From assembly GCA_009392915.1 (NCBI GenBank), contig CP045477.1:416001-480000 (forward strand): a DNA stretch of 64,000 bases. The letters run 5' to 3'. The notes below the pieces were generated by a model. That model was not told the origin of the DNA. It did not search any database and saw nothing but the letters and a program-made list of their open reading frames with translations. This document shows positions 6,730-56,036 of this stretch, one piece after another. Origin of the DNA: Candidatus Forterrea multitransposorum CG_2015-17_Forterrea_25_41. GTDB taxonomy: Archaea > Iainarchaeota > Iainarchaeia > Iainarchaeales > CSSED10-239. Made by a program: the position numbers and the translations under genes. Every line of letters begins with the position of its first letter. Positions within the stretch are counted from its first letter, which is position 1.

Positions 6730-6746
6730 TTTATCACATTAATATT

Positions 6747-7164: not shown

Positions 7165-7890
7165 CTAAACTTTAATCTCTATTAAAACAGGATTATGGTC
7201 ACTAAATCTTCTAATTTCATCATTTTCAAGAACTTTGCAAGAAATAATGTTTTTAAAAATAGGTTTATTCATAAAAAAGTAATCATTTTGCCACTTAACT
7301 TTACTTTTTTTATGTCTTAAGGTCTGTACAGGATATTCTTTATCAGTTAAATCAAAAGCATCAAAAAAATTAAAATCTTTTAATCTATCAAAAAAAATCT
7401 TATGAGAGTTATTATATTTATATATTAAATCAAATTGAATACTTGCATTTAAATCTCCCCCCAATATAATATTTCTTTTACCATTAAGTTTACCATAAAA
7501 CAAAGGAGATAAATCAGATAACATGCTATGTAGATTAGGAATTGAATAACCATCTGTCATAAGACCATATAATGATATAAAAGTAAGTTTTTTATTATTT
7601 ATAACAGTATTTGCTATTGTTAAAGATCCATTAAATTTAGTATTTATTGTTTCCTGAGAAAGATTGTATTTTTTACTATAAATTCCAGATCCCCAATTAC
7701 GATTTTTATCAATTTTATTCCAAATAAGATTTGAATCTTTTTTAATATGTTCAGGAGGATTTGATTCTTGAAATAAATATATATCTGCATCAATATTATT
7801 TAAAAAATAATCCCAAATATCTTTATTTAGCTTTTTATTTTTCCAATAATCCATATTCCAAGTAACTATTTTAATATTCATTCTTATCAA
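7165..7890 (-). CDS. Endonuclease/exonuclease/phosphatase (EEP) family protein
   Basis: The EEP signature motifs are IKIVTWNM, FQESN, GGDLNAS and C-terminal FSDHNPVLIEI. Confidence 0.8.
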   Translation of the reverse strand: MIRMNIKIVTWNMDYWKNKKLNKDIWDYFLNNIDADIYLFQESNPPEHIKKDSNLIWNKIDKNRNWGSGIYSKKYNLSQETINTKFNGSLTIANTVINNKKLTFISLYGLMTDGYSIPNLHSMLSDLSPLFYGKLNGKRNIILGGDLNASIQFDLIYKYNNSHKIFFDRLKDFNFFDAFDLTDKEYPVQTLRHKKSKVKWQNDYFFMNKPIFKNIISCKVLENDEIRRFSDHNPVLIEIKV

Positions 7891-7898
7891 TTTTTATT

Positions 7899-8738
7899 TT
7901 AAATAACCTTCTTAATATTCTTTTCCAAGTAAACAATAAACTTATCTTTATTCTTTCCTTTTAACTTTTCCCAAGAATTATATACTTTTCTTATTTTATC
8001 TTCTAAAATAATATCTTCTTTATCATTATATCTGTATCTTGCATATTTTTCTTTATTATAACCTAACTTATATGCTAAAATATTTTCAATAGTAGATGTA
8101 AAAGTTTCACTAAATGACTGCTTTTTTATTCCACCATATTTATCTAAAATATATTTTTCAATTCTATTATATATTTCATTATTTGAATTAATTACATGAA
8201 TAAGTTCATGAATTAATAAAATATATATTCTATTTTTAGTAAATTTTCTATAATCAACATCATCTCCTATAGATATATGAAAAGATAAATTTGTTGCAGA
8301 ACCTCCAAAACCAGGCCTTGTATTATTTGCAACAAAGAAAGTAGAGCTTACTTTTGTAGAATTATAAATAACATCTAAATAAGGTTTAATTATTTTAAGT
8401 TCTTTCTCTTTAAAATTAGTTATAAATGTATTTAGAAAATCTTCTGATTTTTTATTAATAACAATAGGAAATAATTTTTTTAAAACAATTAGATGTTTTT
8501 TTTCAATATTACTTAATTTTTTTTTATTAACAATATTATCTATTAAATTTTTGTAATTAAGCCTATTTGTAGAAATAATACTATAATCTTTATTAATCAA
8601 AAAAATTAAATCTACCATTTCTTTTAATTGATTTTTATTAGCAAAAGTATAAACTTTATCAATATTACAATATGCTTTACAAGCAAGTCTTAAATCTTTT
8701 GAAGGTTTTATTAAGTTTAGTTTAATATCAACACTCAT
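7899..8738 (-). CDS. Hypothetical protein with HExxH zinc-metallopeptidase-like motif
   Basis: 279 aa containing LLIHELIHVINS (HExxH). It lies 8 nt upstream of the EEP gene on the same strand. I recognise no further family. Confidence 0.4.
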   Translation of the reverse strand: MSVDIKLNLIKPSKDLRLACKAYCNIDKVYTFANKNQLKEMVDLIFLINKDYSIISTNRLNYKNLIDNIVNKKKLSNIEKKHLIVLKKLFPIVINKKSEDFLNTFITNFKEKELKIIKPYLDVIYNSTKVSSTFFVANNTRPGFGGSATNLSFHISIGDDVDYRKFTKNRIYILLIHELIHVINSNNEIYNRIEKYILDKYGGIKKQSFSETFTSTIENILAYKLGYNKEKYARYRYNDKEDIILEDKIRKVYNSWEKLKGKNKDKFIVYLEKNIKKVI

Positions 8739-8805
8739 AAAGATATCTATTAAATAAAGGTTTTTTAAAAGTTATGTTTAATAAGGAGCTATCATAAACT
8801 AAAAA

Positions 8806-9147
8806 TTAAACATTTACCCAAATAACACAACCTTTCTTATGAACGTAAGGTTTTGGAGAAGAATATCTTTTGATATCAGACAATACCCAAGCATGAGGAT
8901 TATTATATTTTAAATCTAAAACATCTTCTTTCTTTATTTGATGCTTTTCTAAGTTTTTAAATAAAATATCTTTGTTAATTTTTATTGAATCTTTAATAGT
9001 ACATTCACCATATACTTTTTTGCTGCCACTCATAATAAGAGCAATTCTTTCACCAATCTTTGAAGTATTAAAGTTTCTTATCTCCCAAGTCTTTTTTCCT
9101 TCTAAGATTAAATTTAACCATTTTTCTTTAATTATAAGGCCTTTCAT
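8806..9147 (-). CDS. ASCH domain protein (PUA-like fold)
   Basis: 113 aa. MKGLIIKEKWLNLILEGKKTWEIRNFNTSKIGERIALIMSG matches the typical ASCH N-terminus (IKxxWaxlIlxGkKTxEiR). Confidence 0.7.
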   Translation of the reverse strand: MKGLIIKEKWLNLILEGKKTWEIRNFNTSKIGERIALIMSGSKKVYGECTIKDSIKINKDILFKNLEKHQIKKEDVLDLKYNNPHAWVLSDIKRYSSPKPYVHKKGCVIWVNV

Positions 9148-9244
9148 AAAAGATATCTATATTTCAAAAGGCTTTTAAACTCTTTTATGTAGTAATTAAA
9201 CTATTTATTAAAAAACAAAAATATATCTTAATTAAGATGATAAA

Positions 9245-10603
9245 TTATTTATCAATAACTTTCCAATATCCTGCTTTGTCTGAACCTATTCTTTTTATCT
9301 TCTTTTGCTCTTTTAATATTTTTAAATATCTTTCAATAGTCTTTGTACTTAAATTAAATTCTGTTGCCATTTGAGCATAAGTAACTTTATTATTAGCTTT
9401 AATTAATTTTAATATTTTTACACCGACATTTACACCGACATTTACACCGACATTTACACCGACATTTACAGTGTCTTTTACAGGTGCATTTACACCGACA
9501 TTCATAGTAGATTCTATTATTTTTTGTCTTTTAAAAACAATACAAAACCAATCAGTATCTATATTAAACTTAACACTTGGAAAAAGTTTTTTTATTCTTT
9601 TAATACCAGAACCAATCTTTTCAATAAACTCTGTTCTTTGTAAACAACCTGCTAAAATAGGATTTCTTAATATACTTACTTTTCCAAAATCTTTTGGACT
9701 AAAAAGAAGTTTTCCTGGATTTAATATTTCAACTCTATCTTCATACACTTCTACCAATATTCTTCCTTGAACAAAATAATCTCTATGAATCATGGCATTT
9801 AGTACTGCTTCCCTTAAAGCAGCCTCTGGTATTTCAGGGGTTTCAACTCTTCTTAAATTAATAATATCAGCCCGTGTTTTTGTATTTCTTAGGATAAATA
9901 ACACAGCATTTTCAAAATTTGATAAAAAGTCAGATTCAAATACTTTTTTATCAAGCATAACAGCCTTAGTATCTCCTTGGTATAAAACACAACTAATATC
10001 TGCATTTAAAAAGAATTTAGTAATTCTTTTTGAAAATAATAATGCACAGGCATTATTTGGAATATCATTTGTTAAAAGATTTAAATTTTTTAAAATATGC
10101 TCTTTTGATAGAGTTGTTGAAAATTTTGCTTTTTTTCTATATTTAAGAAATTTAGTATTATCTATATCTTTAAAATTAAATGAAGAAGTTTGTTTTTCAA
10201 AAGAAATTTTATTTTCGTTTTGTAAAAAATCAATAATTTCATTTCTATCTAGCTTTTGAGAGTTAGCACCTTGCCTTACATAAAAAGAACCACCTACTAA
10301 ATATGGTTTATCTTTTCCTAAAGGAACATATATTATACCAATATTATCTATGATTTCAAAATTAACAACTAAAGAGGGATCTATGTTTCTTGCAATTGTT
10401 TGTACTTCAGAGGAAAATCTATTGTTTATAGAAATACCTTTTATTTCTCCTTTATCTGTAACTCCTAAAAGAATTTTACCTCCATCTGAGTTTGCAAAAG
10501 CACAAATTGATTTTCCAATTTCTTTATGGTTTAAACTTTCTTTAAACTCAAGAGTATATCCTTCTCCTGTTTTTATAAGATTAAGTAAGTTCTTTTTATC
10601 CAT
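9245..10603 (-). CDS. AlbA_2 (Schlafen-like) / HATPase_c_4-type putative transcriptional regulator with C-terminal wHTH
   Basis: The N-terminus LIKTGEGYTLEFKESLN...ICAFANSDGGKILLGV is the divergent-AAA/AlbA_2 signature. The middle has REAVLNAMIHRDY and the C-terminus is a wHTH (VTYAQMATEFNLSTKTIERYLKILKEQKKIKRIG). Confidence 0.75.
   Translation of the reverse strand: MDKKNLLNLIKTGEGYTLEFKESLNHKEIGKSICAFANSDGGKILLGVTDKGEIKGISINNRFSSEVQTIARNIDPSLVVNFEIIDNIGIIYVPLGKDKPYLVGGSFYVRQGANSQKLDRNEIIDFLQNENKISFEKQTSSFNFKDIDNTKFLKYRKKAKFSTTLSKEHILKNLNLLTNDIPNNACALLFSKRITKFFLNADISCVLYQGDTKAVMLDKKVFESDFLSNFENAVLFILRNTKTRADIINLRRVETPEIPEAALREAVLNAMIHRDYFVQGRILVEVYEDRVEILNPGKLLFSPKDFGKVSILRNPILAGCLQRTEFIEKIGSGIKRIKKLFPSVKFNIDTDWFCIVFKRQKIIESTMNVGVNAPVKDTVNVGVNVGVNVGVNVGVKILKLIKANNKVTYAQMATEFNLSTKTIERYLKILKEQKKIKRIGSDKAGYWKVIDK
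9421..9504. repeat. 12-bp in-frame tandem repeat (caccgacattta): 4 perfect plus 3 degenerate units
   Basis: Perfect units lie at 9421-9468 and degenerate units at 9469-9504. On the minus strand they encode (VNVG)n in the linker before the wHTH of the AlbA_2 protein. Confidence 0.9.
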
Positions 10604-10937: not shown

Positions 10938-13307
10938 ATGGCCTTAGAAAACTGGAACAAAGATTTAGAAAAAGAAATCATTGAATTTGAAATTAAAAAT
11001 AAACTATTTAAGTTTAGAGAAGCAGAAGAAAAAGAAGTCTTTAGTATAGACACACCTCCTCCATACTTAAACAGACCAATACATATAGGACAAGCAACAA
11101 CTTATGCAATCATGGACATGATTGCAAGATATAGAAGAAAGAAAAACTATAATGTTATTTTTCCTCTAGGACTTGACAGAAACGGACTTCCAATAGAGAT
11201 GGAAGCTGAAAAAAAATATAACATGAATATTTTAACAACTCCAAGAGAAGAATATGTTGATAAATGTAGAGAAATTTTAATTGAATACTCTGGAGAAACA
11301 CAAAGTAGTTTTAGAAAAATAGGAATAAGCTTTAATTCCTATGAAGTAAATGAAGAAATAGGTTCAGTATATGAAACAGATTCTCCAAAATACAGACAAC
11401 TAACACAAAAAACATTTTTATCACTTTATAAAAAAGGACTAATCTATGAAGATGAAAAAGTTGTAAACTATTGTCCAGGCTGTAAGACAACAATTGCAGA
11501 TTCTGAAATTGATTATAAAGAAACAGAATCTTCATTTAATACAATTCTTTTCACAGTTAAAGAGACTGGAGAAAAAATACCAATAGCAACCACAAGACCA
11601 GAACTTATGTGCAGTATTGGTATGGTTATCTTTAACCCAGAAGATGAAAGATGGAAAAACTTAGATGGAAAAACAGCAGTAACTCCTTTATTTAACCTAG
11701 AAGTTCCAATAAAAGCACACACTCTTGCAAAACAAGACAAAGGAACTGGACTTGTTATGATGTGTTCTGCAGGTGATTATTCAGATATTAGATTTTTTAG
11801 AGAACATGGTATTAAACCAATAATCTCAATTAACATAGACGGAACAATGAACAGTAATGCTAAAGAGTTTGAAGGATTAAGAGTTAAGAAAGCAAGAGCA
11901 CAAATAATTGAAACTTTAAAAGAAAAAGGCCTTGTAACTGAAGAAAAGAAAATACAACATAAGGTTCCTATCTGTGAAAGAAGTAAAGATGAAGTTGAGT
12001 TTATTGCTCAAAGTGAATATTATTTAAAACAACTTGATTTTTTAGAAGATGTTAAAAAAATAGGAAATTCAATGAATTTTACAAATCCTGCAAGTAAAAA
12101 AATATTTGATGATTGGCTTAACACAGTTTCAACTGATTGGCCAATTTCAAGAAGAAGATATTATGCAACTGAAGTTCCTTTATGGTATTGTAAAGACTGT
12201 GGAGAAGTTATCTTAGGATCTGAAGATAAATATCAACAACCATGGAAAGAACTTCCAGAAACAAAAACTTGTCCTAAATGTTCTTCTGAGAACATAGAAG
12301 GAGATAAAAGAGTTTTAGATACTTGGTTTGATTCTTCAAACACTCCTCTTTATATACATCATTTTGGAAGTGATTTTTTTAATAAACATCCAGTATGTTC
12401 TCTAAGACCACAAGGTAAAGAGATTGTTAGAACCTGGCTTTATTATACAGTTTTAAAAGCTTATTTAATGAATGGTGGAGTTATCTTTAAAGATGTATAT
12501 ATCCATCAACATATCTTAGATGGAAAAGGATTTAAAATGTCAAAATCTAAAGGAAACATTATAGATCCTCAAAAAATCTTAGATAGTTATGGTGCTGAAA
12601 GTTTTAGATTATGGGCTGTAACTGAAGGTAATTTAGATCAAAAAGATTTTATGTGTTCTGAACAAAATATTAAAGCTGAACAAAAAACATTAAATAAACT
12701 TTGGAATGTTTCAAAGTTTATAACTCAGTTTAAAAAGAATGATTCTGTTGACACTAAGTTTACAGAACTTGATTTAACTTTAAGAAAAGAAATAAATGAG
12801 CTTGTAAAGCTTGCTGATAGAGATTATAATAGATATAATTTCCATATACCTATAGTTAAAGCAAAATATTTCTTAAACAATACTCTTTCTTCAAACTATT
12901 TAGAACTTGTTAAAAGTAGATGTTATAATGGAGAAGGAAAGTTTAAAGAGGAAGAAAAGAATGGTGCTATTGAGACTTTAAGATATGCTCTTGAGAAATT
13001 ACTATATATTCTTTATCCAGTAATACCTTTTACAACTAATATTATTGTTAAAGAAATATATGGAAAAGATATTAATGAAATTTATTTCCCTGAAGCTGAA
13101 GAAATTACAAGTAAGTTTACAATTGAAGATATTGAAACCTTAAACAACAGTATTTGGAAATATAAGAAAAATAATAATATTTCTCTAAAAGATTCTGTTG
13201 AAAAAGTTACTTTACCTTTAAAGTATGAGATTATAAAGGATGATATAAAGGTAACTCATAATATTATAAACCTAGAGTTTAAAGAAGGAGAAGAAATTAT
13301 TATTTAA
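10938..13307 (+). CDS. valS: Valine--tRNA ligase (class I aaRS), compact form
   Basis: It has a HIGH-like region (PPPYLNRPIHIGQ), GLDRNGLPIE, a CP1 editing segment (TTRPELMCSIGMVIFNPEDERW...GTGLVMMCSAGD), VLDTWFDSS and KMSKSKGN. ValRS over Ile/LeuRS is a judgement from these motifs. Confidence 0.8.
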   Translation: MALENWNKDLEKEIIEFEIKNKLFKFREAEEKEVFSIDTPPPYLNRPIHIGQATTYAIMDMIARYRRKKNYNVIFPLGLDRNGLPIEMEAEKKYNMNILTTPREEYVDKCREILIEYSGETQSSFRKIGISFNSYEVNEEIGSVYETDSPKYRQLTQKTFLSLYKKGLIYEDEKVVNYCPGCKTTIADSEIDYKETESSFNTILFTVKETGEKIPIATTRPELMCSIGMVIFNPEDERWKNLDGKTAVTPLFNLEVPIKAHTLAKQDKGTGLVMMCSAGDYSDIRFFREHGIKPIISINIDGTMNSNAKEFEGLRVKKARAQIIETLKEKGLVTEEKKIQHKVPICERSKDEVEFIAQSEYYLKQLDFLEDVKKIGNSMNFTNPASKKIFDDWLNTVSTDWPISRRRYYATEVPLWYCKDCGEVILGSEDKYQQPWKELPETKTCPKCSSENIEGDKRVLDTWFDSSNTPLYIHHFGSDFFNKHPVCSLRPQGKEIVRTWLYYTVLKAYLMNGGVIFKDVYIHQHILDGKGFKMSKSKGNIIDPQKILDSYGAESFRLWAVTEGNLDQKDFMCSEQNIKAEQKTLNKLWNVSKFITQFKKNDSVDTKFTELDLTLRKEINELVKLADRDYNRYNFHIPIVKAKYFLNNTLSSNYLELVKSRCYNGEGKFKEEEKNGAIETLRYALEKLLYILYPVIPFTTNIIVKEIYGKDINEIYFPEAEEITSKFTIEDIETLNNSIWKYKKNNNISLKDSVEKVTLPLKYEIIKDDIKVTHNIINLEFKEGEEIII

Positions 13308-13333
13308 TTTCTTTTTTTATAAATTTTATATTT

Positions 13334-13371
13334 TACCCTGGAGAAACTACTTTTTTTAAATGTCCAGGGTA
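13334..13371. terminator. GC-rich inverted repeat between convergent valS and sod
   Basis: taccctgga (13334-13342) pairs with tccagggta (13363-13371) across a 20-nt T-rich loop. It sits in the 86-bp gap between two convergent stop codons. Confidence 0.4.
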
Positions 13372-13393
13372 AAGAATAATTTTGTATTAAAAA

Positions 13394-14014
13394 CTATTTA
13401 TAGCTATTAAAAAGAAACTCTGCTTGCTTCCAATTTACAACATTCCAGAAAGCATCAACATACTCTGCTCTCTTGTTTTGATATTTAAGATAATATGCAT
13501 GCTCCCAAACATCTAAAGCTAAAATTGGTTTTAAGCCTAAAGAGATTGCAGAATCTTGATTTCTTGTCTGTATAATTTCAAGTTTTCCTTCCTTATTTAA
13601 AACAAGCCATACCCAACCAGAACCAAATAAAGTTAAAGCTTTTTCTTTAAATTTTTCTTTAAAGTTTTCAAAACTTTCAAAAGAAGTTACAATTTCTTTT
13701 TCTAAAGCTTCAAAAGGTGCTTTATTTGAGGTAGGAGATAAAATATCCCAAAAGAAATTATGATTGAAATATCCTCCACCATTGTTAATGATCGCTTGCT
13801 TTTTATCTTCTGGTAGAACAGATAAATCTTTTAATATATCAATAACTGACATGTTTTCAAGAGATGTACCTTCAATTGCTTTAATAAACTTATCATAGTA
13901 GGCTCTATGGTGTTTTGTATGATGAACACTCATTGTTTCTTTGTCTATAAATGGTTCTAAGGCATCATATTCATATGGAAGAGATGCAAATTGATTTATA
14001 TTGTTTTCACTCAT
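13394..14014 (-). CDS. sod: Fe/Mn superoxide dismutase
   Basis: LPYEYDALEPFIDKETMSVHHTKHH and DVWEHAYYLKYQNKRAEYV are the canonical metal-ligand motifs. Confidence 0.95.
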   Translation of the reverse strand: MSENNINQFASLPYEYDALEPFIDKETMSVHHTKHHRAYYDKFIKAIEGTSLENMSVIDILKDLSVLPEDKKQAIINNGGGYFNHNFFWDILSPTSNKAPFEALEKEIVTSFESFENFKEKFKEKALTLFGSGWVWLVLNKEGKLEIIQTRNQDSAISLGLKPILALDVWEHAYYLKYQNKRAEYVDAFWNVVNWKQAEFLFNSYK

Positions 14015-14945: not shown

Positions 14946-15921
14946 TCTTTAATTTTTCTTCAAATCTTTTATCAAATAAATCATCAATAGTTAAATTAAC
15001 ATCTATTAAATTATTTTCTTGAGCATATATAGCATAATCTAAAAAATTATCTAAATCAACCCATAAATTAAATTTTAATAAAGATAAAGAGTTTATAACT
15101 TCTTCTTTAGAATAGGAAATTATATCTTTATTAACAGCATTAATATGCTTTTGTAAAAGATTATATGTTTCATCAGGATTTTCAACCATAAACCTATGAC
15201 TTTCAATATATCCATCAATAAATTTTTCAACAACTTCTGGATTACCTTCAAGATAATCAGTATTTACAACTAAAGAAGTATTTAAAAAATATCTTTTATC
15301 ATATCCTTTTTCCTCCCATTCTGGAAGAATAATTGCCCCTGATTTAAAAAATTCTTCTTTACCTTCAGCACCTTTCAATGCTGCAGAAATTATTTTTTTT
15401 TCAACTAAAGCAAGAGGGGTATATGCATTTTCAATATCAACATAAGTATATTGAATATCTAAATTATTTTCTTTTAAAATTCTATTAAGCACATAACCAC
15501 TAGTACTATCAACTCTTGTTGCAATAGAGGTATTATTTAAATCTTTTAAGGTTAAAATATCATTAGGTCTTACATAAGCCATACTTGGTGCTAGTGCCAT
15601 TGGAGCAATAAATTTAATATTTATTCCTTTTGAAATTGGATCTATAAAATTATTTGCACCACCAGTAACTAAATTTACTTGGTTACTTGATACTGCTTGA
15701 CGAGAATATTTAGTAGAACTAAAAGGAACATATTCTACAATAATTCCTTGTTTTTCAAATAAACCTAATTCTTTTCCAACAAATATAGGAGAATGACCAA
15801 AACTATCTTCACTATATCCAATAATTATGTCTGATTTTACTTTTGAATTATTATTAAAAATAAAAATTCCAATTATTATTAATATTATTATAATGGGTAT
15901 TACCCAAAATTTTAATTTCAT
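14917..15921 (-). CDS. ABC transporter substrate-binding protein (NMT1/SsuA-like)
   Basis: An N-terminal TM anchor precedes a periplasmic-binding-like domain. It is in an operon with the matching ATPase and permease. Confidence 0.65.
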   Translation of the reverse strand: MKLKFWVIPIIIILIIIGIFIFNNNSKVKSDIIIGYSEDSFGHSPIFVGKELGLFEKQGIIVEYVPFSSTKYSRQAVSSNQVNLVTGGANNFIDPISKGINIKFIAPMALAPSMAYVRPNDILTLKDLNNTSIATRVDSTSGYVLNRILKENNLDIQYTYVDIENAYTPLALVEKKIISAALKGAEGKEEFFKSGAIILPEWEEKGYDKRYFLNTSLVVNTDYLEGNPEVVEKFIDGYIESHRFMVENPDETYNLLQKHINAVNKDIISYSKEEVINSLSLLKFNLWVDLDNFLDYAIYAQENNLIDVNLTIDDLFDKRFEEKLKNAQYEIYKE

Positions 15922-15937
15922 TTAATCTCAACTCCTT

Positions 15938-16768
15938 TTATAATTTAACATTTAATATTTTATTTTCCATATCATTACTAACAAAATCAGACTCTTTAGT
16001 TTTAATAAAATCCTCTTTCATTTCTTTTTCAATATCTTCTCTTAATTTAATGATTTCTAAACTATTAAGTTTTCTTGGTCTTTTATGCTTTAAGTTATAG
16101 ATTTTTTTAATCTTTGCAGGTCTTGGGGATAATAAATATATTCTATCTGCAAGATAAAGTGCTTCATTAATACTATGAGTTACAAAAATAACTGTTTTTT
16201 TTGTTTTAAGCCATATTTTTTCAATTTCTTCTCTTAAATGTTTTCTATATTGATTATCTAGAGCAGATAAAGGCTCATCCATTAATAATAATTTAGGATC
16301 TACAACTAAGGCTCTTGCAATTGATACTCTCTGTTGCATTCCTCCTGAAAGTTTATGAATATTCCACTCTTTAAAATAATCTAAACCAACTAAAGAAATA
16401 TATTTATTTACAGTTTTTTCTTTTTCTTTTTTACTAAGATTTGAATTTTCTAAAGCAAAAGAGATATTTTCAGAAACAGTTCTCCATGGAAAAAGAACAT
16501 AATTTTGAAAAACCATCATTCTTTCTGGAGAAGGAGCTATAATTTCTTTATCTAAAAATAAGATTTTTCCTTTAGTTTGTTTTAGAAAACCAGCTAAAAG
16601 ATAAAGTAAAATAGTTTTACCACAACCACTTGGACCTAAGATACAAATAAACTCTCCATCTTTAACAGAAAAAGAAATATCATCTATGATTTTAAATTCA
16701 GAATTATTTTCAAAAAAAGACATGGATACATTCTTTAAATCCAACATATATATTTTAGAAGAGAACAA
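15938..16768 (-). CDS. ABC transporter ATP-binding protein (NitT/TauT-type)
   Basis: Walker A is GPSGCGKT, the signature is LSGGMQQR and Walker B is LLLMDEP. Confidence 0.88.
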   Translation of the reverse strand: MFSSKIYMLDLKNVSMSFFENNSEFKIIDDISFSVKDGEFICILGPSGCGKTILLYLLAGFLKQTKGKILFLDKEIIAPSPERMMVFQNYVLFPWRTVSENISFALENSNLSKKEKEKTVNKYISLVGLDYFKEWNIHKLSGGMQQRVSIARALVVDPKLLLMDEPLSALDNQYRKHLREEIEKIWLKTKKTVIFVTHSINEALYLADRIYLLSPRPAKIKKIYNLKHKRPRKLNSLEIIKLREDIEKEMKEDFIKTKESDFVSNDMENKILNVKL

Positions 16769-16824
16769 TTTTTAAATAATGATTATTTATGTTTAGAAAG
16801 AACCTTTATGTTTAAGTTTAAAAA

Positions 16825-17169
16825 TTATTTCTTTTTTAAGGACTTTTTAATAGATGTTATCCCATATTCTAAAGGGATGGTATCTAGATTTAAATGAACT
16901 CTATTAATCTCTAAGACTTCAAGAAACTCTCTATAGGAAAGACCAGCAATTTCTGAAGCTGCAGAAATGTTTACAAGATTATTTTTATAAGCTTCTATAC
17001 CCTTTGAAACCCTATACTCAGAAATATCTTTCTCAATTAAAGACCTGATATACTCTGATTCAGTAAGATTTTTCTCTTTTGCAATAGTATAAACAATACT
17101 TGATAAAGAATCTTTAAGTCTTAATGTTTTCACATTCATTTTATCTTTTTCATCTATTTTCTTAACCAC
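16825..17169 (-). CDS. UPF0175-family antitoxin-like protein with an N-terminal RHH-like segment
   Basis: The C-terminal half ISAASEIAGLSYREFLEVLEINRVHLNLD matches the UPF0175 HTH pattern. The N-terminal half KTLRLKDSLSSIVYTIAKEKNLTESEYIRSLIEKD looks CopG/RHH-like. Confidence 0.6.
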   Translation of the reverse strand: MVKKIDEKDKMNVKTLRLKDSLSSIVYTIAKEKNLTESEYIRSLIEKDISEYRVSKGIEAYKNNLVNISAASEIAGLSYREFLEVLEINRVHLNLDTIPLEYGITSIKKSLKKK

Positions 17170-40511: not shown

Positions 40512-40783
40512 TGTACAGGCACTTACTGGTCGAAAAACAGTTCAAGAAAACATTTAGCTTTATAAAATCTCAAGTCCGCAACCCAAAAAGCATCAAACAC
40601 TTAGGATACTGCTGCTTCCTTCCGGATCTGACAGGGTTTACTAAGATATTCGATCTTAATGGACGAACCGTCAGCAATTTTACAAAGAGTGCCTCCTTGC
40701 TTATTTGCCTTCCAGTAATAATCACTCCGGCTATGTAGATTTCCGGTAACAGGAGACTACAACCCCCCCAGCTAGCCTATACA
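40512..40783 (-). ncRNA. Signal recognition particle RNA (archaeal 7S-type)
   Basis: This is a GC-rich island in AT-rich DNA. The minus strand contains GUCAGAUCCGGAAGGAAGCAGCAG (about 40609-40633), the universal helix-8 motif (compare E. coli 4.5S GGUCCGGAAGGAAGCAGCC). The 5' Alu-like segment is GGCUAGCUGGGGGGUUGUAGUCUCCUGUUACCGGAAA. Terminal pairing UGUAUAGGC/GCCUGUACA closes the molecule. The ends are approximate. Confidence 0.8.
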
Positions 40784-48084: not shown

Positions 48085-48963
48085 CTATCTTTTCTTTGAA
48101 TTCTTTTTATTTCTTGAAACTAAATAAACTATCCAACCTAAAAATGCAAATGGAATTATTACAAATAAAAATTTCAATAATGCATTTACACTATTTACAA
48201 AAGATCTTACAAGATCAGATAATTTAACAAGTGCTATATTAGAATAACTGTATTTTTCAGAAATATTTAAATTAATTGTAGAATAATCAACTCTTTGATC
48301 CATGTTCTTTAATGAATCTTCTAAATATTTAATTGTTCTTTCTTGATTAAATATTCTATCATTTAATTCTATTTTATCTGAAATTTTTTCAGCACTATTA
48401 TACATTTCTTGATATCTTAAAAGTCTTTCTCTTTCAACTTCAAGTTCAATTTCTCTATTAGTATAACTTCCAGTTATATCATTTGAATTTTCAGTAAAAT
48501 AAGTAACTTTACCAATCTCTCTTAATTGAGAAACAACAGAATCAAGTTTTGAAGATTCAACTTTAATAGAGTAAGAACCATAATATTCTTCTTTATTACC
48601 ATTTTCTCTTGTATTTAAACTTTCATTTAAAACTATTGAATCAGAAGAAGAAACAATTGACTTTACTTTTGAATCTGCAAGTTTAAATTCTCCACCTTTA
48701 ACTTCTAAAGAAAGACTAGAATTTTTTGTAATTTTTCTATCTTCAACTTCTGGTGCAAAATCTTGACTATAGCTTAAACCATAACCACCAGCATATTCCA
48801 TAGATTTAGAATACATGGCACTATCATTCATTGCAAAAGAATCTCTTGCAGAATAACTAGTTCCATTTGAAACTAAAAAAGTTAAAACTAAGAATGCAAC
48901 AACAACTAAAAGAATTATTAACCAATTTTCTTTTAATCTTATTAATTGTTCTTTAAAGCTCAT
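48085..48963 (-). CDS. DUF4349-like membrane protein
   Basis: It has an N-terminal TM and a central domain containing SIKVESSKLDSVVSQLREIGKVTYFTENSNDITGSYTNREIELEVERERL. A coiled-coil and a C-terminal TM follow, matching the remembered DUF4349 layout. Confidence 0.6.
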   Translation of the reverse strand: MSFKEQLIRLKENWLIILLVVVAFLVLTFLVSNGTSYSARDSFAMNDSAMYSKSMEYAGGYGLSYSQDFAPEVEDRKITKNSSLSLEVKGGEFKLADSKVKSIVSSSDSIVLNESLNTRENGNKEEYYGSYSIKVESSKLDSVVSQLREIGKVTYFTENSNDITGSYTNREIELEVERERLLRYQEMYNSAEKISDKIELNDRIFNQERTIKYLEDSLKNMDQRVDYSTINLNISEKYSYSNIALVKLSDLVRSFVNSVNALLKFLFVIIPFAFLGWIVYLVSRNKKNSKKR

Positions 48964-49247: not shown

Positions 49248-50150
49248 TTATTTTTTAGAGAAAACCTTTCCTAAAAAAACCTTTTTATTAACACCATACC
49301 TTTTAACATCAATATACCCTTTACCTTCTAATTTTTTAAGGTTTCTTGAAACAGTACCTTTTGGTAAAAAACATTCTTTTGAAAGATTTTTTTGCAAAAT
49401 ACCATTCTTTTCTAAAACAATTTTAATTATTTTTTGCTCATTTTCATTAAGTCCTAAAAGAAGATCTTCAGCTTCTATTTTTTCTTTATTTGAAGAAATT
49501 AAAGATTTTTTCTTTTTTAAAATAAACTTAACTAAAACAAAAAATACAAAAAAAGAAATAAAAAATATCATAAAAAACAAAAACCAATTAAATGGTTTTT
49601 TATCAATCATAGAAGAAAAATGAATTGAATAATTAATATCAAAATAAGAAATTGGCTCATTATAAGTTACTAAAAACTTATTATCTTGTATAGTTACATT
49701 TCTATAATCTAGAGAAAGAGAAATTATTTCTGTTTTTTTAGGTAAAATTAAAGAAAAACTATCCACATATTCTTTAAAAATAGGTAAATAACTAACAGAC
49801 CAAACATTTCCATTCTTAAAAGAATAAACATCAGTTAAATAAATTATTTCAAGAGTTAAAGAATTATCTAAAATACAGCAATTATTTAGATTAATTGTTA
49901 AAGTATTAAATGAATAATTATAATTAATATCTTTATTTGTATTCTTTATCTTAAGATCATAAACAGGAATAATTGGAAGAACAATAGAATCTCCTTTTTT
50001 AATTTCTGTAAATAAAACTATATCGTTTACTTGTAAAATACCATTCTCATTAACAGTAATAGAAGTATCTATTTTTTCTATATTATATGCAAAAGAATTA
50101 ACAGAAAATAAAACAATTAATAATAATAATAAAAAATAATAATTTTTCAT
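49248..50150 (-). CDS. Membrane-tethered winged-helix regulator (signal peptide, extracellular domain, TM, cytoplasmic wHTH)
   Basis: The signal is LLLLLIVLFSVNSFA and the extracellular beta domain is ~170 aa. The TM is FNWFLFFMIFFISFFVFFVLVKFIL. The C-terminal wHTH is NENEQKIIKIVLEKNGILQKNLSKECFLPKGTVSRNLKKLEGKGYIDVKR. Confidence 0.65.
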   Translation of the reverse strand: MKNYYFLLLLLIVLFSVNSFAYNIEKIDTSITVNENGILQVNDIVLFTEIKKGDSIVLPIIPVYDLKIKNTNKDINYNYSFNTLTINLNNCCILDNSLTLEIIYLTDVYSFKNGNVWSVSYLPIFKEYVDSFSLILPKKTEIISLSLDYRNVTIQDNKFLVTYNEPISYFDINYSIHFSSMIDKKPFNWFLFFMIFFISFFVFFVLVKFILKKKKSLISSNKEKIEAEDLLLGLNENEQKIIKIVLEKNGILQKNLSKECFLPKGTVSRNLKKLEGKGYIDVKRYGVNKKVFLGKVFSKK

Positions 50151-50229: not shown

Positions 50230-51753
50230 CTATTCAGTTATCTCTACATCTTCAGAAGCATTTAAAGAAACATACTTTTCTCTATGTCCAAAAGGAATAA
50301 AACCAAATAACTTTCTTTGTTCTTTAACCTTTAAAACATATTCAAGTTTGCTATCTACAGAAACAAGTTCAACATTTCCAATAACATTTTCTGTTTTAAT
50401 ATTATTTTCAATTAAAACATTGTTAATTGGTTTTATTTTTCTAACCTTTTCTTGATTTGAAATATACATTTCAGTCATACTTTCATCTGTAAATACTTCA
50501 TAGTCTTCTAAAGTCTCAATTAAAACATCATCACCTTTTTCTTTTCTAAGGTCTTTTTTAGCTTCAGCATTTATTGAAACATTAGATATCTTTACTTGTT
50601 CTTGAACAATCATTCTATTTTGAAGTTTTTCTTGAGCTTTTTCTGAAAGTGTATCAATTGGAGCAAAAGCTACAACAAAATTTTCAGAAACTATTGTTTT
50701 GTAAAGAGGATCTTGACTATCAACTATTCTTCTATTAACTAAACTTACTTCAATAGAATATTTGTTATCTCTAAATTCTTTCCCAAATACTTTTTCAATT
50801 AAATCTAGATTATTTTTTATAGATACTTGATAATTATAAGTATATACTCTTCTCATTTCAGGTAATACACTATTTGCTTGATTTCTAGTAGCAACTGATG
50901 TATTTGCTGAAACTGATCCAGAACCAGAATTATTTACTTGATTTGAAGCAGAAACAGATGCTCTTACTCTTTCAATATTCTTAATAGATTCTAAATTTTG
51001 TGATGAAGAAACTTGAGTATAAACTTCAGCTTTCACAGTTGAAACATCAATTTCAGAAGATTCATTTACAGAAACACTTGAATCAATTCTTTCTGTTGGA
51101 ACTGTTATACCACCTTCACGATCTACCATTAAATAAACTACTTTATCTGATGTTGATATATCAACTAAAGGAGTCATTTTAAAAACTAAATTATATTCTT
51201 CTTTTAAAAGTTCTTTTGAAGAGATTACTCTTGCATGGATTTTTGAATTATTATAGATAAATCCAGAATTATCGTTTACAACAGGAGTAAATTTAACACT
51301 TAAACCTAATTTATTTTCAGTTACTGGAGGTTTAGGTTTTTCTATAAATTTTTCAATACCAACTTTACATTCTTGTTCAGTTTCAAAAGATCTGATATTG
51401 TTAACTCCACAACCACTTCCACATTCTACAAACTCACAAGAATATTCTATTTCAGATTCTTGATTATAATTTGTTTTAGAATCTTCTTCTTGAACATCTA
51501 CATTAGTATGAACTTCAGAAGATATTACCCACATAGGAATACAAACAGCAGGACAGATTTCATCAATATTTCCTTGAGAATTATCAATTGTATCTATATT
51601 AATATTTGCATTCATATTAAGATTAGGAGTATTATCATCAACTACAATCATTTCTGTTACATAATCTGCATTTATTGGAGGAACAGCTAAAATTCCTACA
51701 GCAAATATAAAAGCTAACAGAATAACTGAAATTATTTTTTTTATAACATTCAT
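50230..51753 (-). CDS. Secreted/anchored hypothetical protein with an N-proximal Cys cluster
   Basis: The signal/anchor is IISVILLAFIFAVGILAVPPINA. The Cys cluster is CPAVCIPMW...CEFVECGSGCG...CKVG, and an S/N/V-rich low-complexity middle follows. Confidence 0.55.
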   Translation of the reverse strand: MNVIKKIISVILLAFIFAVGILAVPPINADYVTEMIVVDDNTPNLNMNANINIDTIDNSQGNIDEICPAVCIPMWVISSEVHTNVDVQEEDSKTNYNQESEIEYSCEFVECGSGCGVNNIRSFETEQECKVGIEKFIEKPKPPVTENKLGLSVKFTPVVNDNSGFIYNNSKIHARVISSKELLKEEYNLVFKMTPLVDISTSDKVVYLMVDREGGITVPTERIDSSVSVNESSEIDVSTVKAEVYTQVSSSQNLESIKNIERVRASVSASNQVNNSGSGSVSANTSVATRNQANSVLPEMRRVYTYNYQVSIKNNLDLIEKVFGKEFRDNKYSIEVSLVNRRIVDSQDPLYKTIVSENFVVAFAPIDTLSEKAQEKLQNRMIVQEQVKISNVSINAEAKKDLRKEKGDDVLIETLEDYEVFTDESMTEMYISNQEKVRKIKPINNVLIENNIKTENVIGNVELVSVDSKLEYVLKVKEQRKLFGFIPFGHREKYVSLNASEDVEITE

Positions 51754-51986: not shown

Positions 51987-52058
51987 CGCCCCAGGCGGGA
52001 GTCGAACCCGCCCCACAACCTTGACAGGGTCGTATCCTAACCGATAGACTACTGGGGC
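51987..52058 (-). tRNA. tRNA-Asp (GUC)
   Basis: The minus strand reads GCCCCAG-TA-GTCT..GGAT-A-CGACC-CTGTCAA-GGTTG-...-GCGGG-TTCGACT-CCCGC-CTGGGGC-G, with anticodon GTC. Confidence 0.9.
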
Positions 52059-52174: not shown

Positions 52175-52777
52175 TTATTTTATCTTTTTTAAAAAATACC
52201 AAAAAGCAATAAATAACACTACAAAACCAACTAAAAAAATCATTAAAACATTAAAATAATTTAAAACTGATTTTGAAATCTCTTCTCCAAGCTTATAACC
52301 AAGAATTGTTAAAAAAGAAACCCATAAAAAAGATCCTAAAAAAGTGTAAAAAATAAAATCTTTTAAAGGCATTTTTGAAAAACCAGCAGGAATAGAAATA
52401 TACTGTCTTACAACAGGTATTAACCTTCCAAAAAAAGTTGCTGATTTACCATATTTTTTAAAAAACAATTCTGCTTTTTCTAGATGAGAAATATTTATAA
52501 AGAATATTCTTTGGTGTCTTAAAAGATATCTCCTTCCTAAATAATAACCTATAGAATAATTTATTAATGCACCAAAAACAGAACCTAAAGTTCCTAAAAG
52601 AATTACAAGAAATATATTTAAATTACCTACATATGCAAAAGCACCTGCAGGAACCATTATGATCTCTGAAGGAAAAGGAATAAATGAACTTTCAATAGTC
52701 ATTAATAAAAACACCAATAAATGTCCAACAAATCCTGTTAAATAATCAGACAAAAATAAAATCATTTCTTCAAACAT
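52175..52777 (-). CDS. DedA/SNARE-associated family membrane protein
   Basis: ESSFIPFPSEIIMVPAGAF and the GRLIPVVRQYISIPAG motifs are typical of DedA. Confidence 0.8.
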   Translation of the reverse strand: MFEEMILFLSDYLTGFVGHLLVFLLMTIESSFIPFPSEIIMVPAGAFAYVGNLNIFLVILLGTLGSVFGALINYSIGYYLGRRYLLRHQRIFFINISHLEKAELFFKKYGKSATFFGRLIPVVRQYISIPAGFSKMPLKDFIFYTFLGSFLWVSFLTILGYKLGEEISKSVLNYFNVLMIFLVGFVVLFIAFWYFLKKIK

Positions 52778-52805: not shown

Positions 52806-53510
52806 CTAAACTATATAACTAGATACAAAAAAGATTAAAAGACTTACTGGAAGTAAAAAACATAAATAAATCCAAACTTTCTTTGAATTACTATCAATCT
52901 GTGATAAATAAATTGAAGAAATTATAACATATTCAACTAAATATACAATTGCACAATAATAACTTACAATAAACAAACTAGAATTAGAAGTTAAACCAAC
53001 AACTGAAATATCAACAATTCCAGTTAAACTTTTAACCAAAGAAATTACAACCCCTAAAATCCCAGGAACAATAAAACCACCTGCAAAAAGAATAGTGTAT
53101 TTTTGCATTAAAAGAATTGAAGTTCTTTCATCAAACAATTCTCTTGATTTTAAAAAATCTTTAACTAAATTTTTATAATCTTTAGAAGTAACTGTTCCAG
53201 TAAAAACTGAATATTCTAAAAGATCTAAAAAATTTGAAAGAAAAGAAGAATTATATTTATTTTTTAAAATATTAAACACTTCTTTAGGGGTATGCCCTTT
53301 GTTTATTTTATTTAAAATTAATTTAAATTCAGAAGATATTAATTGATTACTGGAAGATGCAAGCTTTACTAAAATTACTTTTAGATCATTTGTTTTAACA
53401 AACCCAGAGATTCTTAAAACTTCATCAATTAAAGCATCTTCAAATTTCTTTCTCTTAATACTAAAAAAATAATCTCCAAATAAGTAATTTAAATACTTCA
53501 TTAATTTCAT
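52806..53510 (-). CDS. Type II secretion system F-like platform protein (TadC/FlaJ-like, single domain)
   Basis: A helical cytoplasmic N-domain is followed by 3 TM helices. It is positioned after a paralogous gene and the secretion ATPase. Confidence 0.45.
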   Translation of the reverse strand: MKLMKYLNYLFGDYFFSIKRKKFEDALIDEVLRISGFVKTNDLKVILVKLASSSNQLISSEFKLILNKINKGHTPKEVFNILKNKYNSSFLSNFLDLLEYSVFTGTVTSKDYKNLVKDFLKSRELFDERTSILLMQKYTILFAGGFIVPGILGVVISLVKSLTGIVDISVVGLTSNSSLFIVSYYCAIVYLVEYVIISSIYLSQIDSNSKKVWIYLCFLLPVSLLIFFVSSYIV

Positions 53511-53533
53511 AATTAATTAACTCTCATTTTTAT

Positions 53534-54280
53534 TTATGGAAGATTAGCTTTCATTGTTAGGAATATAAACATATCAATTATTGGAAATAAAATAACAATT
53601 ATAAAAATAACAGATAAAGGTGTAAAAGATAATTCTAAAAAATTACTACCAACTAATAAAAACATTAAAAACAAAGCAGGAACAATTGCAGAAACAACAA
53701 TATAGATTAAAGATAAAAGACTTAATTTAGTGGAATAATTTTTAATTAAATAATTTTGTTTTTCAATAATACTTGAAGATAATGTTCTTAAAGATTCAGA
53801 TTTATTTAAAGAACCAGTAGATAAAACATCTTCAATCTGATAAAAAACTCTCTTTAAATCTGAGTTTTCAACACCCACAGAAATAAAAGATTCAGAAAGA
53901 GAATAACCTAAGACATTTACTTTATATAAAACTTTTTTAATAATTTGCCCAATTAAAGAAGAATCAACTCTATTTTCTAAAGCAATTTTTAAAGAAATAT
54001 TCTTATCTAAATCATTTGCAAGGTTATTTAAGAAAAAAGGAATTTCTTTATTTATTTGTCTTTGATGATTTTGAAGCTTAATCTTGTATTTAAAAAAAAT
54101 AATAAAAAAGAACATAAAGAAAAACATAATAAATAAATTAAATAAATAACTATAAGATAAACTAATAACCACTGAATCAATTAATAAAAAAATAATTAAA
54201 ATTATTAAATAGAGAATAATAAATAACAAAAAGTTCTTTCTTGTAAATATTTCTTTCTTTAAAAAAATATAATCAATCAT
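53534..54280 (-). CDS. Type II secretion system F-like platform protein (TadB/FlaJ-like, single domain)
   Basis: TM helices flank a helical cytoplasmic domain (FFLNNLANDLDKNISLKIALENR...). It has an 8-nt overlap with the ATPase gene end. Confidence 0.5.
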   Translation of the reverse strand: MIDYIFLKKEIFTRKNFLLFIILYLIILIIFLLIDSVVISLSYSYLFNLFIMFFFMFFFIIFFKYKIKLQNHQRQINKEIPFFLNNLANDLDKNISLKIALENRVDSSLIGQIIKKVLYKVNVLGYSLSESFISVGVENSDLKRVFYQIEDVLSTGSLNKSESLRTLSSSIIEKQNYLIKNYSTKLSLLSLIYIVVSAIVPALFLMFLLVGSNFLELSFTPLSVIFIIVILFPIIDMFIFLTMKANLP

Positions 54281-56036
54281 AATCTTTTCTAATTAATATT
54301 TCATCAATTATTTTTTCTTGTTTCTTATAAACTTTAAGATAATCTTTTTTATTTTTAATATCAAATGCAAATTTTAATTTATCATAGATTTTAATAGAAT
54401 CATTAACTTTAATTAATTTATTTTTATAAATATCAAAATAAAATAAAACATTTAAAGAAATTTTTCCATCTTTATATATAACTTCACAGATTTCAGTAAT
54501 ATTTCTTAAATCAATAGATTTACCTTTTAAATATTTATTATATCTTCTTTGAGTTATAATTAAATCAATTACACCTAAATCAGTTTCTAAAACACCATAT
54601 GACTTAAACCTTAATAGAGCTTCATTAGCACTTTGAGAATGGAAAGTTGTATATGTACCTTTTGCTTGACCACAAAGCATAGATTCAATTAAATATTTTG
54701 ATTCTTCTCTACTTCTAATTTCTCCAATAACAACTCTATCAGGTCTCATTCTTAAAGTGTTTATAACTAAACTTTCAAGATTAATTCCAATCTCAGGATT
54801 TACAAGTGTAAAAACTTTATGTTTATGAGGGATATTTATCTCTCTAACTTCTTCAACAACAACAAATCTTTCATCTAAAGGAACAAAAGAAAGTAAAGTG
54901 TTTAAAGTGGTTGTTTTTCCAGAACCAGTATTTCCAACAACAATTATATTTGAATCTGTTAAAAAACAAAGACTTAAAAAAACTAAAGCTTCTTTTGAAA
55001 CTGTATTAAAAGAGATTAAATCTTTAATTGTAAATGGTTTTTGAGAAAATTTTCTAATAGTAATACAAGCACTTTCAGTTATTGGGTTTATAACTGCATT
55101 AAGTCTTGAATTATCTTTAAGATAAGTATCTAAAATTGGATTTTTTAAAGTAATATATTTATTTGAGTGCCAAGAAAGTTTATTAATTAAATCCCTTATT
55201 ACTTGAGAAGAAGAATAAGAAAGATTACTTTCAAGCCAACCATAATATTTATGATAAACATAAAGTGATTTTCCTTCTCCAATAATTACAATTTCTTCAA
55301 GATAAGGATCTTTTAATATTTCTGTTAATGGTCCATAATTATAAAGATTATTAAAAGAAATATCTATAATATAATTAAATTGATCTTCTTCAAGCTCTAT
55401 GTTATTAACATAACAATAATCAATTAATTCTTTTTCAATATCTTCTTTTATTCTTTCAGTTGAAACTTTTTCAATATATTCTGTTCTAGTTTTATAAGAA
55501 TCTAAAATAAAGTTAATAACTTCAATTTCTTGGATTGAAAGATTTTGATGAAAAATTAAATATCTTTTAGAAGAATCTTTCATTTCAAATACATTTTTAG
55601 AAATATTTCTTAAGATTTCTTTTTTTAAATCTAAAACAACATAACCTAAATATCTATTAAGAATATATTTCTTTTCATCATCAGTAAACTCATCCATTAT
55701 CTTTAATAAAGCAGGATTATTTTTATAACAAAACATAGAAAAAGAACTTAAAGCACATAAATCACATTTATAAGCTTTATTTTTTCTTAAGATAATAGCA
55801 TTATGTGGACAAGCTTTAAGACACTCACCACACCCATCACATTTTTCAGAATCAATTGCTACAACGCCTTTAGAAACATAATAAATAGCATTTTTTTTAC
55901 AAGCTTTAATACAAGGAGCATCTTTACAATTGGTACAATTGAATACACAAGAAGAGTCTTTTTTTGTAAAATTGTAAGGACAATTTAGAAAAACATCTGT
56001 ATCTTTGATAAAATCTTCTGTTTTCTTAAGATACAT
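54273..56036 (-). CDS. Type II/IV secretion (FlaI/VirB11/TadA-type) ATPase with an N-terminal 2x[4Fe-4S] ferredoxin-like domain
   Basis: The ATPase core has Walker A GNTGSGKTTTLN, FVVVEEVREI, RMRPDRVVIGEIRSREE and GTYTTFHSQSA. The N-terminal ~100 aa carries CTNCKDAPCIKAC, CDGCGECLKACPHNAI and YKCDLC. Confidence 0.85.
   Translation of the reverse strand: MYLKKTEDFIKDTDVFLNCPYNFTKKDSSCVFNCTNCKDAPCIKACKKNAIYYVSKGVVAIDSEKCDGCGECLKACPHNAIILRKNKAYKCDLCALSSFSMFCYKNNPALLKIMDEFTDDEKKYILNRYLGYVVLDLKKEILRNISKNVFEMKDSSKRYLIFHQNLSIQEIEVINFILDSYKTRTEYIEKVSTERIKEDIEKELIDYCYVNNIELEEDQFNYIIDISFNNLYNYGPLTEILKDPYLEEIVIIGEGKSLYVYHKYYGWLESNLSYSSSQVIRDLINKLSWHSNKYITLKNPILDTYLKDNSRLNAVINPITESACITIRKFSQKPFTIKDLISFNTVSKEALVFLSLCFLTDSNIIVVGNTGSGKTTTLNTLLSFVPLDERFVVVEEVREINIPHKHKVFTLVNPEIGINLESLVINTLRMRPDRVVIGEIRSREESKYLIESMLCGQAKGTYTTFHSQSANEALLRFKSYGVLETDLGVIDLIITQRRYNKYLKGKSIDLRNITEICEVIYKDGKISLNVLFYFDIYKNKLIKVNDSIKIYDKLKFAFDIKNKKDYLKVYKKQEKIIDEILIRKDYD

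Follow-up and report, generated by a model that had tools for sequence, protein, structure and literature searches.

To our knowledge, the motors of type IV filaments take their input through N-terminal domains, which sense cyclic di-GMP or dock a partner, and none is known to do so with iron-sulfur (Fe-S) clusters. In MshE and PilB, N-terminal MshEN domains bind cyclic di-GMP; in GspE, the N1 domain binds GspL. Here, we describe an archaeal motor whose N-terminal extension is of another kind. It is encoded in a stretch of 64,000 nucleotides from Candidatus Forterrea multitransposorum, a tiny DPANN archaeon of the symbiotic type (GenBank assembly GCA_009392915.1, contig CP045477.1, positions 416,001 to 480,000), called "the window" below. 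In this protein (the query of all searches described here), a motor ATPase of the T2SSE family is fused at its N-terminus to a ferredoxin domain of the Fer4 families, and its gene is followed by two genes for platform proteins of the T2SSF family. This fusion is real, widespread, and uncharacterised.

Described motors resemble the query in part, but have no such domain. The proteins afGspE (2OAP) and FlaI (4II7, 4IHQ) share its catalytic motifs and its architecture of an N-terminal domain followed by a C-terminal domain, but they have no Fe-S domain; the query adds approximately 110 residues ahead of the region that aligns. The operon of FlaI holds genes for FlaH, FlaJ, and archaellins, none of which is found near the query. 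Tad systems (CpaF/TadA with TadB and TadC) are like this locus in having one ATPase gene and then two separate single-domain T2SSF genes. However, this locus has no nearby genes for a Flp pilin, a TadV/CpaA peptidase, or a secretin, and where the N-terminus of CpaF is a disordered region and a helical bundle, that of the query is a ferredoxin domain. The MshEN and GspE N1 domains are, of course, also extra N-terminal domains on ATPases of the T2SSE family. Here the likeness is one of analogy only, as their folds are unrelated and their ligands are a second messenger or a protein partner, not an Fe-S cluster.

The ferredoxin domain has described relatives of its own. In HycB, HydN, DmsB, NrfC, PsrB, and FdnH, the Cys residues follow the same four-group pattern, with the KCDLC motif included. 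These proteins stand alone as subunits and act as the wire between a catalytic subunit and a membrane anchor. In the query, by contrast, the domain is part of a motor ATPase, no partner oxidoreductase is encoded nearby, and one terminal cluster appears to have been lost. ABCE1 (Rli1), which is present in archaea, is likewise a P-loop ATPase with an N-terminal, Cys-rich, ferredoxin-like domain that holds [4Fe-4S] clusters, and these clusters are structural. ABCE1 is, however, an ABC-type twin ATPase that acts on ribosomes, its di-cluster domain is of another subtype, and it has no membrane platform.

The first-pass annotation of this DNA, made by a model from the letters alone, read the locus as a Tad- or archaeal type-IV-pilus-like ATPase and platform, with the ATPase fused to an Fe-S domain in the style of DmsB and NrfC. 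This reading bears up well; HycB is of the same kind. The three open reading frames (ORFs; 587, 248, and 234 amino acids) lie where that annotation placed them, and the domain search that it proposed finds both the T2SSE and the Fer4 families above cutoff in the 587-residue protein. In Pfam, T2SSE matches residues 294-498 with 122.4 bits (cutoff 24.9). Five families (Fer4_6, Fer4, Fer4_11, Fer4_9, and Fer4_7) exceed their gathering cutoffs within residues 33-95, with Fer4_11 (30.8 bits, cutoff 26.2) covering that entire range. In alignment A1, all 24 members match both T2SSE and Fer4, and 17 match Fer4_11. In NCBIfam, the N-terminus matches DsrO, FdnH/FDH-beta, DmsB, and TtrB.

Structure prediction points the same way. 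An AlphaFold 2 (AF2) model of the isolated Fe-S domain has a mean confidence (predicted local distance difference test, pLDDT) of 90. Its closest folds in a Foldseek search are four-cluster electron-transfer subunits throughout. These include the AOR subunits 9mqx_G and 9mqx_E (E 4e-6 for 9mqx_G), WOR5 (6x1o_B), PsrB (2vpw_B, with a root-mean-square deviation of 3.3 over 90 columns), HycB3/4 (7qv7_A), and FdnH (1kqf_B). The domain is also well conserved. M1 of the fusion ATPase is retained among homologues, and in 23 diverse homologues the mean identity to the query is 54% in the catalytic core, 44% in the Fe-S domain (37% if its Cys residues are left out), 31% in the N-terminal domain of the ATPase, and 29% at the C-terminus. 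Only the catalytic core is thus better conserved than the Fe-S domain.

A homologue search of 5.8 billion proteins gave 3668 matches. Nearly all of the best 120 of these are 550-626 residues long and contain Fer4 and T2SSE, at identities to the query as low as 35%. Those fused proteins that have a named source come from Iainarchaeota/Diapherotrites, Micrarchaeota, and Undinarchaeales (Undinarchaeota), which are three DPANN phyla; close relatives bear the label Candidatus (I)ainarchaeum, which belongs to the DPANN group Nanobdellati. The exact sequence of the query (cluster P0267) is found on 38 contigs, and it is identical to that of NCBI NCP72030.1, which is annotated as "Flp pilus assembly complex ATPase component [archaeon]".

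Thus, of the two parts of the outcome "common and already characterised", which the first-pass annotation had named as fatal to its claim of novelty, one holds and the other does not. The fusion is common, being found in 35 of the best 150 representatives after clustering at 50% identity. It is not characterised. No description of a Fer4-T2SSE fusion was found in the literature searched, and the words "ferredoxin", "Fe-S", and "4Fe-4S" do not occur in the main survey of archaeal type IV pili. No chain in the PDB spans both the Fe-S and the ATPase domains, by sequence search or by fold search, and neither the PDB nor the searched literature holds a characterised pilus or archaellum ATPase that bears Fe-S clusters, as the annotation had supposed. 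Pipeline annotations name the two domains only (JGI; UniRef, as "4Fe-4S ferredoxin-type domain-containing protein").

How many clusters might the domain hold? Of 107 fused homologues, approximately half contain 16 Cys residues, arranged in the four-group pattern of HycB, DmsB, and NrfC (group I, CxxCxxCxxxCP; group II, CxxCxxxxCxxxC; group III, CxxCxxCxxxCP; group IV, CxxCx(n)CxxxCP), enough for four clusters. Homologues of this type, among them P0054 (Iainarchaeum), P0073 (Diapherotrites), and P0091, are the more distant ones. The query does not have all four groups complete. In its clade the first three Cys of group I and the fourth Cys of group IV are missing, which leaves 12 conserved ligand Cys and three of the four ligand sets. 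N107 stands where the fourth Cys of group IV would be, and "xCP" has become "NNP". At this position 56% of the homologues have Cys, and exactly these also keep the first three Cys of group I.

The Cys residues that remain are almost invariant. Twelve of the 13 N-terminal Cys of the query are each kept in at least 97% of the 107 homologues, down to 35% identity. The thirteenth, C30, is the only one outside the ligand sets, and it is conserved in 2%. The best stretch for Fer4 and Fer4_6 in Pfam, residues 58-81, spans group III.

In the established topology of DmsB and FdnH, the first three Cys of group I and the fourth Cys of group IV hold one cluster, and the fourth Cys of group I and the first three of group IV hold another. 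On this pattern, one [4Fe-4S] cluster is predicted to be held by C34, C37, and C42 with C76, and a second by C66, C69, and C72 with C46. A third is predicted at C91, C94, and C103 with C19, by analogy with DmsB and FdnH. The ancestral domain would have had a fourth cluster, a terminal one, which is predicted to have been lost in the clade of the query.

These assignments revise the first-pass annotation at one point. Its Cys motifs are correctly placed (nucleotides 55739-55982 correspond to residues 19-100). However, it described a 2x[4Fe-4S] domain with KCDLC trailing behind, and the trailing motif is not an appendage; with C103 and C19-P20 it makes a third ligand set. Because this set is retained, three clusters are predicted here, and not two; in the more distant homologues the ligand pattern predicts four.

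Two further homologues, P0018 and P0021, have in addition lost the first three Cys of group II and the fourth Cys of group III (CP has become FP), which together make one full ligand set. Both keep the full-length domain, and the P0021 variant is supported by 12 independent member sequences from several sources. Across orthologous loci, Cys residues have been lost in sets of four that match the ligands of one cluster, giving 4, 3, 2, and 0 clusters. Loss in exact ligand quartets is hard to explain otherwise, and we infer from it that the clusters are probably bound, in a topology like that of DmsB and FdnH.

The variants with no clusters deserve description. Two loci, L013 and L014, encode unfused orthologues of 494 and 470 residues in the same gene order (DUF192, ATPase, T2SSF, T2SSF, PAC2) as fused relatives. 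No separate ferredoxin ORF lies upstream of the ATPase gene in either, and for this reason an origin of the unfused forms by gene splitting was rejected. Unfused relatives start at approximately profile positions 113-126. In a neighbour-joining tree of 114 core sequences, fused and unfused proteins are not separated (best split 82/114); this tree is crude, and some of its "unfused" entries may be truncated at the 5' end. Among the matches listed from a scan of genome contigs with patterns from alignment A1, none of 43 other archaeal T2SSE loci has an Fe-S domain. That scan matched on generic Walker A patterns, and the matches listed, from which L013 and L014 were taken, are unfused ATPases only, which makes it a control and not a census of the fusion. 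The Fe-S domain is an accessory module of one orthologous motor family, whose members have 4, 3, 2, or 0 clusters.

Several of the closest unfused relatives are giant proteins (P0122, with 1156 residues; P0134, with 1605; P0123, P0171, P0188, and P0190). These hold two or three complete T2SSE cores, with two or three Walker A motifs, in a single polypeptide. In these, the subunits of a motor that is normally a hexamer of separate chains would be joined covalently, in twos or threes.

Three genes make up the conserved unit, and three only: the ATPase and two T2SSF proteins. In all ten related loci (L001-L009 and L090), two single-domain T2SSF genes of the TadB/TadC type stand directly downstream of the ATPase gene. 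The window places the same two genes, a DedA gene, and a gene for phosphoribosyl pyrophosphate (PRPP) synthase beside the ATPase. In close relatives alone, PRPP synthase, PCC, and DedA adjoin the module; in distant ones, it is flanked by DUF192 and PAC2. The DedA/VTT gene may be an operon passenger that is co-transcribed with the motor module. It stands outside the conserved core: beyond L001-L004, the relatives with 54% identity or more, it does not adjoin the module, and in distant loci its position is taken by a PAC2, a regulator, or a Macro-domain gene. The Undinarchaeales locus L090 has, within 6 kb downstream of the module, a flavodoxin gene and a gene for a 390-residue multi-Fer4 protein (13082-13507 and 15863-17035, both on the (-) strand). 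These might be redox partners, or neighbours by coincidence. Upstream of the module in L090 is a gene for a CetZ tubulin. Table 1 collects the features of the window and the related loci.

Table 1. Features of the fusion ATPase and its locus, numbered within the window, and related loci that hold the three-gene core
Feature	Location	Strand	Basis or remark
Fer4-T2SSE fusion ATPase	54273..56036	(-)	587 aa; ORF list and Pfam T2SSE and Fer4 families
N-terminal HycB/DmsB-type polyferredoxin domain, residues 1-110	55707..56036	(-)	Fer4_11, NCBIfam, fold matches
C19-P20, remnant "CP" (fourth Cys) of group I	55977..55982	(-)	C19 in 98% of 107 homologues
Cys group II, C34-x2-C37-x4-C42-x3-C46	55899..55937	(-)	Each Cys in 97-100% of 107 homologues
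Cys group III, C66-x2-C69-x2-C72-x3-C76-P77	55806..55841	(-)	98-100% of 107 homologues
Cys group IV, K90-C91-D-L-C94...C103	55728..55766	(-)	C91, C94, C103 in 100% of 107 homologues
Linker helix and GspE/FlaI-type N-terminal domain, residues 111-290	55167..55706	(-)	2OAP aligns from query residue 158
Catalytic C-terminal domain	54273..55166	(-)	Motif search, T2SSE
First platform gene, TadB-like	53534..54280	(-)	248 aa; overlaps ATPase stop codon by 8 nt
Second platform gene, TadC-like	52806..53510	(-)	234 aa; single T2SSF domain
DedA/VTT-domain membrane protein	52175..52777	(-)	VTT_dom 83 bits; 28 nt downstream of platform genes, same strand
ATPase + T2SSF + T2SSF core	L001		98% identity to query
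ATPase + T2SSF + T2SSF core	L002-L004		54% identity to query
ATPase + T2SSF + T2SSF core	L005/L006		39% identity to query
ATPase + T2SSF + T2SSF core	L007/L008		35% identity to query
ATPase + T2SSF + T2SSF core	L009		39% identity to query
ATPase + T2SSF + T2SSF core	L090/L091 (Undinarchaeales)		

Behind the Fe-S domain, the protein is a motor of the T2SSE superfamily, to which PilB, GspE, FlaI, TadA, and VirB11 belong. Its motifs are intact: Walker A (G368NTGSGKT), Asp box (V393VEEVRE), Walker B (D433RVVIGEIR), and His box (T464FH). Residues K374, E395, E399, E439, and H466 are invariant in alignment A1. An AF2 model of the full-length fusion reaches pLDDT 87.7, and the two-domain fold of its ATPase part superposes on those of afGspE (2OAP), FlaI, and CpaF (TM-score up to 0.73 for the first two). 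These three are also the nearest solved ATPases, both by sequence (2OAP, 156 bits; FlaI 4II7, 131 bits; CpaF) and by fold (Foldseek E values between 1e-33 and 2e-28, with 1e-33 for 2OAP, 3e-32 for FlaI, and 3e-30 for CpaF). In NCBIfam, FlaI ranks first, followed by TadA, VirB11, and TrbB, all far below their equivalog cutoffs; FlaI (NF058587) scores 175.2 bits against a cutoff of 550, and TadA (TIGR03819) scores 146.8 against 373.15. An archaellum motor was considered and rejected, given the score for FlaI and an operon of the wrong kind (no FlaH, two-domain FlaJ, or archaellins), in the window and in relatives. Precomputed annotations also list the Pfam family PF27713, "UCP018868", on the fusion ATPase and on most of its homologues.

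The two platform proteins score differently. The 234-residue protein matches T2SSF above cutoff in Pfam (30.1 bits, cutoff 25.2). The 248-residue protein, taken alone, falls below it (18.0 bits, E 0.003); its orthologues in L005, L009, and L090 are recorded as T2SSF matches. Because the ortholog profiles of the two proteins (A2 and A3) match each other (hhalign, 98% probability, E 1.2e-13), both are assigned by sequence as single-domain T2SSF paralogues, in the manner of TadB and TadC. The split of the platform into two such genes, to which the first-pass annotation had drawn attention, is confirmed. It is not unusual, however, as archaeal systems of clades 1 and 2 commonly have two tadC-like genes (Makarova 2016, PMC4858521).

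What, then, would a ferredoxin domain do on such a motor? The hypothesis that we prefer, at a probability of roughly 45%, is that the domain is an input module, responsive to redox state or to the status of the ferredoxin pool, oxygen, or iron, on a paralogous pilus motor. Here, the three genes would encode a motor of the type IV filament superfamily, made of a hexameric ATPase of the FlaI/GspE/TadA class and a TadB-like and a TadC-like platform protein. Hydrolysis of ATP would drive the platform to assemble, and perhaps to retract, a filament; this is to be expected because the catalytic core is intact. The ferredoxin pool would reduce the clusters, or oxygen or a shortage of iron would bring about their oxidation and degradation. 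Either event would, in turn, alter the activity of the hexamer or its coupling to the platform. An input function is proposed because, among ATPases of this family, an N-terminal extension usually serves for input or docking, as MshEN and GspE N1 do. That the domain is an accessory on a paralogous motor is supported by the unfused orthologues of L013 and L014 and by L007, which has a second, ordinary locus with class III signal-peptide pilins. The lineages concerned are described as fermentative, with ferredoxin-dependent oxidoreductases and no electron transport chain (PMC8561730).

Several considerations weigh against this hypothesis. Three to four clusters in a chain of the DmsB type have the architecture of an electron wire, and known Fe-S sensors usually hold one cluster. 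Further, the domain is dispensable in orthologues and its cluster number drifts (4, 3, 2, 0), which fits a sensor but fits a structural part just as well. Last, no gene for a pilin or a prepilin peptidase is found in the window or beside the module in relatives, and a function in pili rests on homology. A pilus as the product of the module, and control of its motor by redox state, are thus proposals. The motor would use pilins encoded elsewhere in the genome; pilin-less duplicates of ATPase and tadC genes are documented (Makarova 2016, PMC4858521).

A structural or mechanical role, as in ABCE1, is a possible but rather unlikely alternative. Here, the clusters would do no more than stabilise a compact domain that docks the hexamer to a platform, membrane, or scaffold partner, or that is a lever moving with the ATP cycle, and no redox signal would be involved. 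ABCE1, as a P-loop ATPase with an N-terminal di-cluster domain, provides the precedent, and it is found as a weak fold match to the Fe-S domain (7o80_Bz, at rank 41). P0018 and P0021, with a domain of full length and no ligands for an internal cluster, also argue for such a role, as that loss would break any wire. The short linker and an invariant G131 at the junction suggest rigid packing. On the other hand, orthologues work without the domain, and it is therefore not needed for docking to the conserved platform. Further, 12 to 16 oxygen-labile ligand positions would make a costly scaffold.

The module might, of course, build no pilus, and serve instead secretion, the uptake of DNA or its transfer to a host, or the assembly of surface proteins, with the Fe-S domain tuning that process. 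We regard this as unlikely; the question is partly independent of what the Fe-S domain does. As the first-pass annotation had observed, no pilin gene and no prepilin peptidase gene is evident in the 64-kb window; a FlaFind-like regular expression, inspection of the N-termini of approximately 70 genes, and Pfam searches with 10 membrane or small proteins gave no pilin, no Peptidase_A24, and no second ATPase there. The one match to the class III signal-peptide pattern is spurious. Nor do pilin genes adjoin the module in any of the ten related loci. In L007, the genome that carries a four-cluster Fer4-ATPase module already holds a second, ordinary T2SSE/T2SSF/T2SSF locus 10 kb upstream (L007 1-8841), a complete pilus locus with a 647-residue ATPase, two T2SSF genes, and three genes with class III signal peptides, among them MQMSKG|MIGIEF... 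and MAMRG|QFYVISL.... That the ATPase scores far below the equivalog cutoffs for FlaI, TadA, VirB11, and BasE is also consistent with a function other than in pili. Against this stands the fact that every characterised pairing of T2SSE with T2SSF assembles type IV filaments or pseudopili. Further, orphan operons of ATPase and tadC genes that use pilins encoded elsewhere, and that may be differentially regulated, are known in archaea (Makarova 2016, PMC4858521). The ordinary locus in L007 also encodes a 1449-residue Laminin_G_3 protein, maybe an adhesin.

A third alternative takes the likeness to electron-transfer proteins literally. Here, the six chains of the hexamer would form a ring of 18 to 24 clusters that conducts electrons between the ferredoxin pool and a partner in the membrane or filament, possibly gated by ATP. 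The close structural relatives of the domain are all electron-transfer subunits, and the flavodoxin and Fer4 genes near the Undinarchaeales module would suit this idea. In subunits of the FdnH type the clusters are reportedly arranged in the order FS1-FS4-FS2-FS3; the cluster lost in the clade of the query is terminal in that order, and the remaining chain would be continuous. However, no gene for a catalytic or membrane redox partner is conserved beside the module, the T2SSF proteins have no cofactor-binding motifs, and the variants with two clusters or none in orthologous loci argue against an obligatory wire. The lineages, moreover, have no electron transport chains (PMC8561730). Conduction is, on balance, improbable. 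Its most specific form, an ATP-gated ring of 18-24 [4Fe-4S] clusters at the base of a type IV filament machine that carries electrons between the ferredoxin pool of the symbiont and the platform or filament, and so possibly to the host, is highly improbable. If true, a pilus motor would be coupled in a new way to electron transfer between species or out of the cell, in DPANN archaea that have no respiratory chain.

Finally, the suspicion that translation truly starts at an internal Met (M101 or M113), leaving the Cys-rich stretch untranslated or a chance extension of the ORF, draws on the unfused orthologues of 470-495 residues that start near query residues 110-125, but it is excluded for practical purposes by the retention of M1 and of all 12 ligand Cys in homologues of 35-98% identity, by a conservation of the Fe-S domain better than that of the ATPase N-terminal domain, by its confident AF2 model, and by 107 independent genes that carry it in frame.

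The remainder of the window has features of its own. It is archaeal (an Archaea_SRP RNA at 40512-40783 and four tRNAs) and its GC content is very low, at 21-32%. Downstream of the module, a tRNA gene (51987-52058) separates it from genes for a 507-residue secreted protein that has no Pfam match (50230-51753 (-)) and a DUF4349 membrane protein (48085-48963 (-)); both proteins are conserved in L001 and not in L002. A 300-residue protein encoded at 49248-50150 (-), also conserved in L001, resembles a transcription factor tethered to the membrane. It starts with a signal peptide, which is followed by a long region that is presumably external, by a transmembrane helix (near residues 185-210), and, at the C-terminus, by a winged-helix domain for DNA binding (HTH_24/MarR/TrmB). 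Positions 1-10600 have the look of a defence or mobile island, from N-termini read by eye; the genes there include one for an HsdM-like methylase (3373-4890), one for a likely specificity subunit (140-1432), and several for small membrane proteins of unknown kind. The sign of the GC skew changes at approximately 10 kb.

Pili are thought to be important for the attachment of host-dependent DPANN cells to their hosts. If the Fe-S domain is an input module, this would be the first pilus ATPase to respond directly to oxygen or to the redox or ferredoxin state of its cell. The family itself offers the means to pursue this, as natural variants with 4, 3, 2, and 0 clusters are ready-made controls. 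Its loss of Cys residues, cluster by cluster, is also a natural experiment on how multi-cluster ferredoxin domains decay.

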